Assembly: GCA_047617785.1 (NCBI GenBank)
Contig: JBLGBK010000002.1
Coordinates: 1 to 64,000 of the forward strand
Direction: 5' to 3'
DNA: 64,000 bases
From: Colwellia polaris
GTDB lineage: Archaea; Nanohalarchaeota; Nanosalinia; Nanosalinales; Nanosalinaceae
Positions 5,684 through 13,503 of the stretch are shown one piece after another; positions within the stretch are counted from its first letter, which is position 1; the number at the start of each line of letters is the position of its first letter. The translations under genes and the position numbers were made by a program. The notes beneath the pieces are model-generated. The model ran no database searches. It worked only from the letters and a program-made list of their open reading frames with translations, and was not told the origin of the DNA.

Positions 5684-8853
<3,170 letters not shown>

Positions 8854-10995: not shown

Positions 10996-12132
10996 TTAAG
11001 ATTTCAAACCTCGATACATCAACAATCCCGAAACAGTGACGCATACAGCTATTACACCGATAAATACCGGGGTTCCCAGATACTGAAGTACTATGCTTGT
11101 AACGGCTATCGGAAGCAAGAGGAAAGAGTTAAGGACTACATACTTCAGGAAGACCTTAGAGTCGTAAAGTTCCGAATTAGGATTTAAACCGGTTAGATAA
11201 GACACTAAGCTGAGAGAGACAAATGTTGAAGCATAAAGTGCGAGAAGAGAAAGCGCAAACTGGCCTGAATAAAAGTAAGCAGATACACCTAGAAATAGTG
11301 TGGTCAATGGAACCGATAGGAATACGAAAGCTCTAAACTTAGATTTAACCAGCATTTCCCTATTAATAGGTAAGTGGAGATAATCCTGTTCCTCGTCAAA
11401 TCTGTTAACCCAGTTATAAACTGAGATTGTGCTCATACCAAGCAGTACGCTGTATGTAATCAACGGATTCTGCATGAAGACCTTCTCGAAAGGGAGGTTA
11501 AGAACTGCAAGCCAGTAAACACCGGTAAGGAGTAGCAGCGTGAAGAAAATCTTGAGCAACCCTCCCGCAGACCTTGAAACATCTTCTATAGTCTTAGAAG
11601 TTAAAGCACCTCTCTCAGATACGTAAGATAGATTGAAAAGCGAAGGTGAATGCATACCTGTTCTAGAAAGGATAAAAGATACAACTGCGCCTCCCAGAAA
11701 GCCCGCAAATATTTTCAGAACCACTATAGGCATGAATACCATGTATGCTACACTAAATCCTGCGAAAATCGGTATTATGAACATCAGGCTGTAGTATATA
11801 GCATCATTCAATACGAAAAGACCTAATAGTTTGTTTTGAGATATTGGAAGCGTTCTAGAAGTATAGACCAGCAGACTTCTATCGCCGATAAGATTTTCTG
11901 CTTCATCACGAGAACTGAAACCCACCAACCCCGCAGCCAGACCTAGCAAAACACTGAAACCTGTCAGACCGAGAGTTACTTCTGTAGCTGCAAGCTCAGA
12001 ATAAATTCTGAATGGGTATAGAGTTACCAGCGTGATTGCAAACACAGTCAGAGGAAATAGCTTGAAGTACCGACCTTTATACATATCTGCTTGCATCCGG
12101 TACTGCTCTTTCAGCATTCGTTTCAGTATCAT
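10996..12132 (-). CDS. ABC transporter permease (exporter type)
   Basis: Many TM helices; overlaps the upstream ABC ATPase by 4 nt. Confidence 0.8.
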   Translation of the reverse strand: MILKRMLKEQYRMQADMYKGRYFKLFPLTVFAITLVTLYPFRIYSELAATEVTLGLTGFSVLLGLAAGLVGFSSRDEAENLIGDRSLLVYTSRTLPISQNKLLGLFVLNDAIYYSLMFIIPIFAGFSVAYMVFMPIVVLKIFAGFLGGAVVSFILSRTGMHSPSLFNLSYVSERGALTSKTIEDVSRSAGGLLKIFFTLLLLTGVYWLAVLNLPFEKVFMQNPLITYSVLLGMSTISVYNWVNRFDEEQDYLHLPINREMLVKSKFRAFVFLSVPLTTLFLGVSAYFYSGQFALSLLALYASTFVSLSLVSYLTGLNPNSELYDSKVFLKYVVLNSFLLLPIAVTSIVLQYLGTPVFIGVIAVCVTVSGLLMYRGLKS

Positions 12133-12806
12133 TGAGTAGCGAATAGATGTTTCTTCAAGTTTTCAACTTCAGATATATTTTCCTGTATTCTACCGTCATC
12201 TAGAAACAATACATTGTCACACATTTCTTCGGCTAGATCAAGTAAGTGAGTACAGAGGAAGATACTGCCAGTATTCTCTGCGTATTCTTTGAAGAGCTTC
12301 TTTGCCTCTTCCTGTATAAATGGATCCAAGTTGATCAATGGTTCGTCGATGAAGACAAGCTCTGGTTCGTGGAAAAAGGCCTGTATAATCATAAGTTTCT
12401 GTCTCTCTCCCTTAGATAACTCTTTGGTTGGTTTATCCATTTTACCTTCTAGATTGAACCTTTCTATCCATTTCTGTTTAACTATTTCTGTATCACGTAT
12501 ATCTGCGATGTACTGAAGATATTCATTACCAGTGAGAAAGCTTGGCGGATCTTCTCGTTCTGGTAGAACTCCCAGATGTTTTCTGAGCTCTACTGGATCG
12601 TCCCACGGGTCTCTTCCAAGAACTTCGACTTTTCCTTTATCTCTCTGAATCTGGCCTGTCAGTATCTGCACGGTTGTAGATTTACCTGCCCCGTTAGGCC
12701 CTATTAGGCCAGTTATGCTGTTTTCCTCCATCTCAAAGCTTAGGTCTTCTAGAACCGTATTGCCACCATAGGACTTGGAGAGATTATCTATTTCTATTAC
12801 AGACAT
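12129..12806 (-). CDS. ABC transporter ATP-binding protein
   Basis: GPNGAGKST, LSKGERQK, FIDEP, CTH motifs. Confidence 0.95.
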   Translation of the reverse strand: MSVIEIDNLSKSYGGNTVLEDLSFEMEENSITGLIGPNGAGKSTTVQILTGQIQRDKGKVEVLGRDPWDDPVELRKHLGVLPEREDPPSFLTGNEYLQYIADIRDTEIVKQKWIERFNLEGKMDKPTKELSKGERQKLMIIQAFFHEPELVFIDEPLINLDPFIQEEAKKLFKEYAENTGSIFLCTHLLDLAEEMCDNVLFLDDGRIQENISEVENLKKHLFATQ

Positions 12807-12884
12807 AAATCTTCTAAACTAAATTTGGTGTTCGCCGAATTAAATAGTAACTAACATAGACGTAACCGCGGCGGAAAAGGTAAA

Positions 12885-12985
12885 ATTAGAGTGGTTCAGA
12901 GGTGTTCAAAGTTTTCATCACCCAGGATTTTGTATCTCCCGTCAGAAACTTAGGTTCCTCATCATCACCGGAAAAACCATTTAAT
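12885..12985 (-). ncRNA. Box C/D methylation-guide sRNA, predicted target 23S A-loop G2553 (E. coli numbering)
   Basis: On the minus strand: box C RTGATGA (within 12959-12968), D' CTGA (12942-12945), stem CGGGA/TCCTG, C' GTGATGA (12915-12921), D CTGA (12896-12899), terminal stem TGGTT/AACCA. D guide TGAACACCT pairs with 23S 8414-8422. Confidence 0.85.
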
Positions 12986-12987
12986 AG

Positions 12988-13503
12988 CTATTCTTCGTGG
13001 TATACTCCGCTATAACCTTCTTCTGTCTCCCGAATCTTTTCAAAGACTATCTGATTCAAACGCGCATTCTCTTTAATCTCGACTCCTTCAGAATTGTCAA
13101 CTGAGATCTTGAAGCTGCCGGTACCTGTAAAACCCGAGTCCCATACTGCATTTTCAATAGTCACTCCCATGCGCAGAAGGGATGAGCGCGGATAGGCATA
13201 CCCTACAAGATTATTTGGTATGTCAACCTTCTCGTTCATCACAACCTTGTATGTTCCTTGTTCAAGCTCCCACCATCCATACTCGTCTTCTTGATTCTTT
13301 TTCTCTGGTTGAATAGGTGTTGACTCCGGTACCTCTCGTTCATCATTCGAGAAGTCCAGTTTACCAGAGTCTTCATATCTGTGGATTTCAGCTGCTGTAA
13401 GATCAAAACCTTGTGGCGTCAACTGTGTATCAAGATGGACATAGTTCTGTATCAGTCCTTGCTCTTCAATCAGTTCACGGAGCTGTTCTCGATTCAAAGT
13501 CAT
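12988..13503 (-). CDS. dut: Trimeric dUTPase / dCTP deaminase family
   Basis: GFDL, PRSSLLRMG, AVWDSGFTG, RLNQIVF and C-terminal YSGVY motifs. Confidence 0.88.
   Translation of the reverse strand: MTLNREQLRELIEEQGLIQNYVHLDTQLTPQGFDLTAAEIHRYEDSGKLDFSNDEREVPESTPIQPEKKNQEDEYGWWELEQGTYKVVMNEKVDIPNNLVGYAYPRSSLLRMGVTIENAVWDSGFTGTGSFKISVDNSEGVEIKENARLNQIVFEKIRETEEGYSGVYHEE

Follow-up and report, generated by a model that had tools for sequence, protein, structure and literature searches.

G2553 of 23S rRNA pairs with C75 of the A-site tRNA. In the loop of helix 92, the A-loop, the first base is numbered U2552 and the fifth C2556 (PMC4644070). In the 23S rRNA of Haloarcula marismortui a UmGm tandem was mapped at U2552 and G2553, and for haloarchaea the authors of that study, who found no guide, proposed RlmE as the enzyme for both Um2587 and Gm2588 (PMC2584109). 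In yeast the guide RNA snR52 directs the formation of Um2921, and the stand-alone Rossmann-fold enzyme Spb1 makes Gm2922 (PMC2584109; PMC9380741). The background that an earlier note on this DNA had given for Gm2588, Gm2922 and Spb1 agrees with these two papers. Gm2553 is also made by the SPOUT enzymes RlmP in B. subtilis and MRM3 in human mitochondria (PMC9380741; PMC12123411). Among the archaea, sR25 of Pyrococcus abyssi is a C/D sRNA with a predicted guide for the equivalent of U2552 (PMC2584109), and A-loop guides were predicted in hyperthermophilic archaea for U2552 in five species and for C2556 in two (PMC4644070). In Haloferax the intron of tRNA-Trp is a C/D sRNA that guides methylation of its own tRNA (PMC2584109, PMC7994747).

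The sRNA described here resembles sR25 and the guides of the hyperthermophiles in being an archaeal C/D sRNA with a predicted role in 2'-O-methylation of the 23S A-loop. In contrast to these guides, which aim at U2552 or C2556, it is predicted to aim at G2553; it differs from them also by a hairpin of 13-20 nt between the D' and C' boxes and by a score below the threshold of every Rfam family. With the yeast system it shares the two adjacent A-loop bases and the involvement of an RNA guide in the tandem, but yeast uses a guide for the U only, whereas here a guide is predicted for the G and, in relatives, for both bases. RlmP and MRM3 have the same predicted product, Gm2553, but both consist of protein alone and have an L30-like domain at the N terminus (for RlmP, PMC12123411). 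Unlike the Haloferax sRNA, the RNA in question lies outside any intron. In the literature outside subscription journals and supplements we found neither an RNA guide for Gm2553 nor C/D sRNAs of this lineage; Gm2553 is assigned there to the protein enzymes Spb1, RlmP and MRM3 only, and as far as this literature goes the target base is new for a guide. Judged from the sequence comparisons presented below, we put the probability at roughly 80% that the locus is a genuine archaeal C/D sRNA gene, guiding the predicted methylation of G2553 in place of stand-alone enzymes.

The window, i.e. the whole stretch of 64,000 nucleotides that was analysed, belongs to an assembly of 787,359 bases in 22 contigs (G000) that is 96.5% complete. 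A canonical box C/D sRNA is located on the minus strand at about 12973-12888, enclosed by positions 12885-12985. The features of the sRNA, of the neighbouring gene and of the 23S target are as follows (class A is defined further below):

12967..12969, minus strand: 5' half of the terminal stem, GGU, pairing with ACC at 12895-12893 in the predicted fold
12959..12965, minus strand: box C, AUGAUGA; an alternative GUGAUGA overlaps it at 12968-12962
12946..12958, minus strand: D' guide region, GGAACCUAAGUUU, a C-D' spacer of 13 nt; orphan guide
12942..12945, minus strand: box D', CUGA, exact consensus, invariant in class-A copies
12922..12941, minus strand: D'-C' hairpin linker, CGGGA...UCCUG, 20 nt, forming a hairpin of 5 pairs in the predicted fold
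12915..12921, minus strand: box C', GUGAUGA, exact consensus
12900..12914, minus strand: C'-D spacer, 15 nt; its final 9 nt (12908-12900, UGAACACCU) are the D guide
12896..12899, minus strand: box D, CUGA, a consensus match
12893..12895, minus strand: 3' half of the terminal stem, ACC, pairing with GGU
12875..12885, minus strand: U-runs at 12885-12882 and at 12878-12875, probably an archaeal transcription stop
12988..13503, minus strand: dCTP-deaminase-like gene (Pfam DCD 73 bits; dUTPase weaker, 38 bits)
8414..8422, plus strand: 23S target stretch in helix 92, GGGUGUUCA, predicted methylated base G8418
5798..8752, plus strand: 23S rRNA gene (Rfam LSU_rRNA_archaea, 2565.8 bits)

The C, D', C' and D boxes and the internal and terminal stems described in the earlier note were all found where it had placed them, on the minus strand. 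The same note had located the RNA directly downstream of dut on the same strand. Position and strand are right, and the match of the sRNA model starts 17 nt past the stop codon (UAG, 12990-12988) of the open reading frame 12988-13503; the name dut is only approximate, because the DCD family is the better Pfam match, and the gene is called dcd in the following. The open reading frame downstream of the sRNA (12129-12806, minus strand) is similar to an ABC-transporter ATPase by its sequence motifs and is conserved beside the sRNA only in the two genus relatives.

Using a strict four-box pattern, a single match was obtained in both strands of the whole 787,359-base assembly, and 40 Markov-1 random genomes of equal size contained none. 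A relaxed scan with one mismatch allowed in C' and in D' gave four matches at three loci of the same genome; the other two loci resemble GAT/GAA-rich coding sequence. At the gathering thresholds of Rfam only the 23S gene and two tRNAs are recognized in the window, which leaves the sRNA unannotated, and none of the curated C/D families (sR5, sR3, snoPyro_CD and others) reaches its threshold, the best being sR5 with 18.1 bits compared with a cut-off of 40. With the Rfam thresholds relaxed there are eight weak matches, every one of them to a C/D family and on the minus strand. The minimum-free-energy fold of the sRNA is no better than that of shuffled sequences (z = -0.53), as is usual for C/D RNAs. 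The lack of an Rfam family at threshold and the non-significant fold energy would both fit a chance cluster of motifs behind dcd, in its 3' untranslated region, with no sRNA gene at this place. Against the empty random genomes and the distribution of the RNA in related organisms, this explanation is highly improbable.

A DNA search showed that both relatives within the genus match at 82-84% identity and that this similarity is confined to the sRNA (query 32-123), ending at its edges; short matches over C', the guide and box D were obtained in many other genera. From an alignment of 14 copies (A1) we built the covariance model R1, which scores the sRNA of the window at 74.7 bits and the next match in the same genome at 16.2 bits. 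The order searched comprises 70 genomes, which is the whole phylum in the genome library. R1 has matches in 53 of these 70 genomes and in 46 of the 49 other genomes of the family to which the window belongs. One match of 28 bits in another genome (G035, contig C90) is without boxes and was taken as false.

Of the R1 matches, 72 were combined in a second alignment (A2). Counted in this alignment, which was fitted to R1 and leans toward the hypothesis both in its pair counts and in its guide conservation because R1 contains the guide, 83.0% of the cells of the two helices are paired compared with 45.2% in shuffles, 247 cells are changed on both sides compared with 81.9 in shuffles, and 35 of the 72 copies have in common the guide core GAACACCU, 8 nt beside box D, but not their spacers, loops and D' guides. 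When the partners were slid against each other, 35-50% of the cells were paired. In the terminal stem (helix 1) 78.6% of the cells are paired and all four pairs are changed on both sides; in the D'-C' hairpin (helix 2) the corresponding values are 86.7% and all five pairs. Conservation of the family and these compensatory changes in both stems already contradict a chance cluster of motifs.

The D guide UGAACACCU pairs with the 23S stretch GGGUGUUCA by eight Watson-Crick pairs and one terminal G-U, and position 5 of the guide is paired with G8418; both the pairing and the register are as the earlier note had claimed. Among the targets examined, which were the 23S rRNA, the 16S rRNA and 26 tRNAs found with ARAGORN in the same genome, this A-loop match is the best. 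In an alignment to an annotated E. coli 23S rRNA, G8418 occupies the second position of the UGUUC loop in helix 92. The E. coli record labels this base 2555; its numbering runs at +2 relative to the standard one, and the base is thus G2553, the assignment that had been proposed. The guide fits the loop-flanking bases of its own genome as well (G...A; Haloarcula has U...G and E. coli C...G), which bears out a further claim of that note. In this assembly the 16S gene is located on contig C15 and the 23S gene on another contig, and linkage of the two was not seen.

A match of nine pairs is by itself weak evidence, as 552 of 3000 random 12-mers have a partner stretch in the rRNAs or tRNAs with nine or more pairs, of which no more than one is G-U. 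None of the 3000 landed on the two A-loop bases. The stretch GGGUGUUCACC is identical in the 23S rRNA of 29 of 29 relatives, the locus of a thirtieth being cut, and only the pair 8413/8425 varies. Since the target is invariant across the phylum, there is no covariation of guide and target behind the pairing. The frequency of nine-pair matches among random guides leaves room for a real C/D sRNA with another RNA as its true target and a coincidental A-loop match, as does the composition of the target set, which consists of the rRNAs and the 26 ARAGORN tRNAs, 5S rRNA not having been found in the assembly with RF00001. We consider such a coincidence very unlikely: the A-loop bases were reached by none of the random guides, the 8-nt core beside box D has been preserved in many genera in an otherwise variable RNA, the guide fits the helix-92 flanks of this lineage but neither the Haloarcula nor the E. 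coli ones, and a sister guide shifted by one base meets the neighbouring known site.

For the D' guide GGAACCUAAGUUU no credible target was found in the 23S rRNA, the 16S rRNA and the 26 tRNAs of the same genome; the best match has nine pairs including two G-U at 23S position 74, and this guide is not conserved even inside the genus. A different D' guide, GACAUCGU before CUGA, occurs in 34 of 51 genomes and is complementary to CGAUGUC of the peptidyl-transferase ring of 23S rRNA. Its position 5 lies on the equivalent of E. coli U2504; in the window the target is 8366-8372 and the predicted base U8369. The target CGAUGUC is present in the 23S loci of 25 of 30 relatives, and the class-A sRNA of the genus studied here has lost this D' guide.

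The copies of the family fall into two guide registers that are one base apart. Class A, with 35 of the 72 copies and scores of about 51-82 bits, ends with GAACACCU before CUGA and has position 5 on G2553. It includes the copy of the window, and five of the seven columns of box C are invariant among its 35 members. Class B, with scores of 30-57 bits, ends with (A)ACACCC plus A or G before CUGA; its guide, AACACCCA beside CUGA, has the same A-loop complement displaced by one base, so that position 5 falls on U2552. Examples of class B are L135 (G002, contig C11, 5631-5716), L127 (G001), L104, L105, L110 and L113. We tallied the registers in the 51 genomes from which the R1 matches were retrieved, with our own motif rules. 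A guide for G2553 was present in 40 genomes and one for U2552 in 37; 29 genomes have both, 11 only that for G2553, among them the genome of the window, 8 only that for U2552, and 3 neither. These last three genomes have odd D boxes. In six genomes both guides are combined in one sRNA, the D' guide aiming at G2553 and the D guide at U2552 in five of them (G010, G013, G016, G025, G027) and the reverse in the sixth (G034). The single sRNAs with one A-loop guide before D' and the other before D are L119, L129, L130, L132, L141 and L047.

The syntenic, dcd-linked class-A sRNA of one genus has an extra C before box D in three genomes (L039, L052 and L096 in G065, G033 and G064) and reads GAACACCUC before CUGA. 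With this C the predicted target becomes U2552 in place of G2553, apparently a switch of register by insertion of a single base. Guides offset by one base and covering both bases of a tandem point to the A-loop as the target and indicate that the register matters. The one-base offset, which matches the UmGm tandem of Haloarcula, is the strongest evidence for the predicted A-loop target.

Some members of the family deviate in their boxes or in their location. Four A-loop guide RNAs, L144 and the three loci L122, L124 and L133 of a single genus in another family, combine a terminal stem of seven pairs with non-canonical boxes, the C box being GAUGAAGA and the D box UUUA or CCGA. The locus L145 (G044, contig C7, 12862-13032) is a tRNA with an intron of about 91 nt in the anticodon loop, which was found with Rfam (48.3 bits) and not with ARAGORN. 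Within this intron, about 0.9 kb downstream of dcd, is a C/D-like sRNA whose guide, GUGAACACCCU, precedes a CCGA box and has the U2552 register. It shares with the Haloferax guide the position of a C/D sRNA in a tRNA intron, but is a guide for the 23S A-loop.

An sRNA that is real and binds helix 92 could also act chiefly as a folding chaperone, or could direct the methyl group to U2552 and not to G2553. Pairing of the guide takes in the 5' strand of the helix-92 stem, which would keep this stem open. A separate guide for U2552 was not found in the assembly, which is 96.5% complete, by motif searches, by R1 at E values up to 10 or by the relaxed box scan, and the place syntenic to the U2552 copy of a genus relative (contig C15, 13431-14667) contains no guide. 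Spacers of about 12 nt between the boxes are the norm and the optimum in archaeal C/D sRNPs. The C-D' spacer of the sRNA is 13 nt long and its C'-D spacer 15 nt, a length seen in only 4 of 69 parsed copies of the family; 12 nt were counted in 32, 13 nt in 23 and 14 nt in 10 copies, and the mode of 12-13 nt accounts for 55 of the 69. The longer spacer could loosen the ruler. However, relatives maintain two distinct registers that differ by one base, and often do so within one genome or even one RNA, which would be pointless unless the register sets the site. The fifth-nucleotide rule, which is well established, is moreover measured from box D. A chaperone role or a methyl group on U2552 is therefore unlikely, and methylation of G2553 remains the favoured prediction.

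The position of the sRNA behind dcd is shared by many relatives. Positions of dcd homologues were compared with the R1 matches, and a tblastn analysis of the loci agrees with the result. In 23 of the 53 genomes having dcd the sRNA lies at most 50 nt past the dcd stop on the same strand; in one genome the distance is 178 nt, and another seven, some of them from two other families, have the sRNA 640-1100 nt downstream. The copies examined from relatives likewise have a T-run, 8-15 nt behind box D. The linkage to dcd together with the T-run suggests that the sRNA is transcribed with or just behind dcd and that transcription terminates at the U-runs.

The proteins of the C/D RNP are encoded in the same genome. 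Fibrillarin (236.4 bits), Nop5 (163.3 bits) and L7Ae (92.1 bits) all score above their cut-offs and have open frames without internal stops, which settles a check that the earlier note had recommended. Fibrillarin and Nop5 are adjacent on contig 3, and L7Ae is 15 kb away. RlmE/FtsJ (haloarchaeal homologue HVO_0180) is likewise an A-loop 2'-O-methyltransferase, RlmE acting on U2552, but the 70 genomes of the phylum yielded no credible protein of this type, 38 bits being the highest FtsJ score. The two top FtsJ matches that were scanned are RsmB/F m5C methyltransferases, and the match in the genome of the window (18.1 bits) is KsgA (RrnaAD, 138 bits). The sole SpoU-type protein of this genome has 191 amino acids and is TrmJ-like; its best NCBIfam match is TrmJ/YjtD with 120.7 bits, under the cut-off of that model. 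A Pfam scan of this protein for the RlmP/MRM3 type gave the SpoU domain only, without an L30-like N-terminal domain. The protein-only routes to A-loop methylation thus look absent by these profile searches, and the RNA-guided system appears to replace stand-alone RlmE, Spb1 and RlmP/MRM3 in this lineage.

The following sequence of events is the most likely one for the favoured G2553 guide; transcription, RNP assembly and methylation are inferred from the established mechanism of C/D RNPs. The RNA would arise together with the dcd transcript or directly behind it and would end at the U-runs past box D. The boxes C/D and C'/D' would fold into kink-turns that bind L7Ae, and a Nop5 dimer would then recruit two fibrillarin subunits. 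The nine nucleotides before box D would pair with the 5' strand and the loop of helix 92 in the nascent 23S rRNA, so that fibrillarin would move the methyl group of SAM to the 2'-OH of the base opposite the fifth guide nucleotide, G8418 (E. coli G2553).

An exact-pattern scan of about 186,000 species genomes yielded at least 119 loci. Among the matches listed, 20 have C and D' boxes upstream; nine of these 20 come from genomes titled Nanohaloarchaea, Nanosalina or Nanohalobium, and six more are the same four-box sRNA. Four bacterial loci (L163, L185, L229, L237) share one motif, presumably secA, and were taken as coding; this motif holds box-like words and the guide word, and the 18-base pattern alone gives many chance matches. 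The last of the 20 is a compact sRNA of about 60 nt in a Nanoarchaeia genome (G074; L173 / L267, contig C27, 11867-11936). It has a terminal stem of five pairs and a 12-nt D guide, GGGUGAACACCU, which is in the G2553 register and extends the A-loop complement; the 23S rRNA of this organism was not found in its assembly. In the order of G074, R1 has matches in 14 of 121 genomes, several with D' guides in the U2552 register. These matches indicate that A-loop guides are not confined to the phylum of the window.

Retention of RNA-guided A-loop modification in a reduced genome, as the earlier note had put it, is one interpretation, and gain of the guide would be the alternative. The maker of Gm2588 in haloarchaea is not answered by our results because the helix-92 sequence of haloarchaea differs.

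For the lineage as a whole we lean slightly toward a wider interpretation, in which Um2552 and Gm2553 are both written by paralogous guides one nucleotide apart that replace RlmE, Spb1 and SPOUT enzymes, and in which indels beside box D switch the targets. The genome of the window, with its G2553 guide only, would then have ribosomes with Gm2553 and without Um2552, as in B. subtilis. Two unrelated protein families have so far been credited with Gm2553, Spb1 with a Rossmann fold and RlmP/MRM3 of the SPOUT type, and the RNA route, if true, would be the first RNA-guided solution for this modification and a third, convergent one. An RNA-guided Gm2553 would parallel the neighbouring Um2552, as described in the 2025 RlmR paper (PMC12123411). 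The model R1 detects, in 53 of 70 genomes, a family of sRNAs that Rfam misses, and the guide pairs of the relatives, with their offset of one base, offer a natural experiment in the evolution of guide registers. For the organism itself, this sRNA would be one concrete reason why a genome of 0.79 Mb keeps fibrillarin, Nop5 and L7Ae: with one canonical guide found in the assembly, the entire RNP seems to be maintained in a very small genome for the sake of very few guides.
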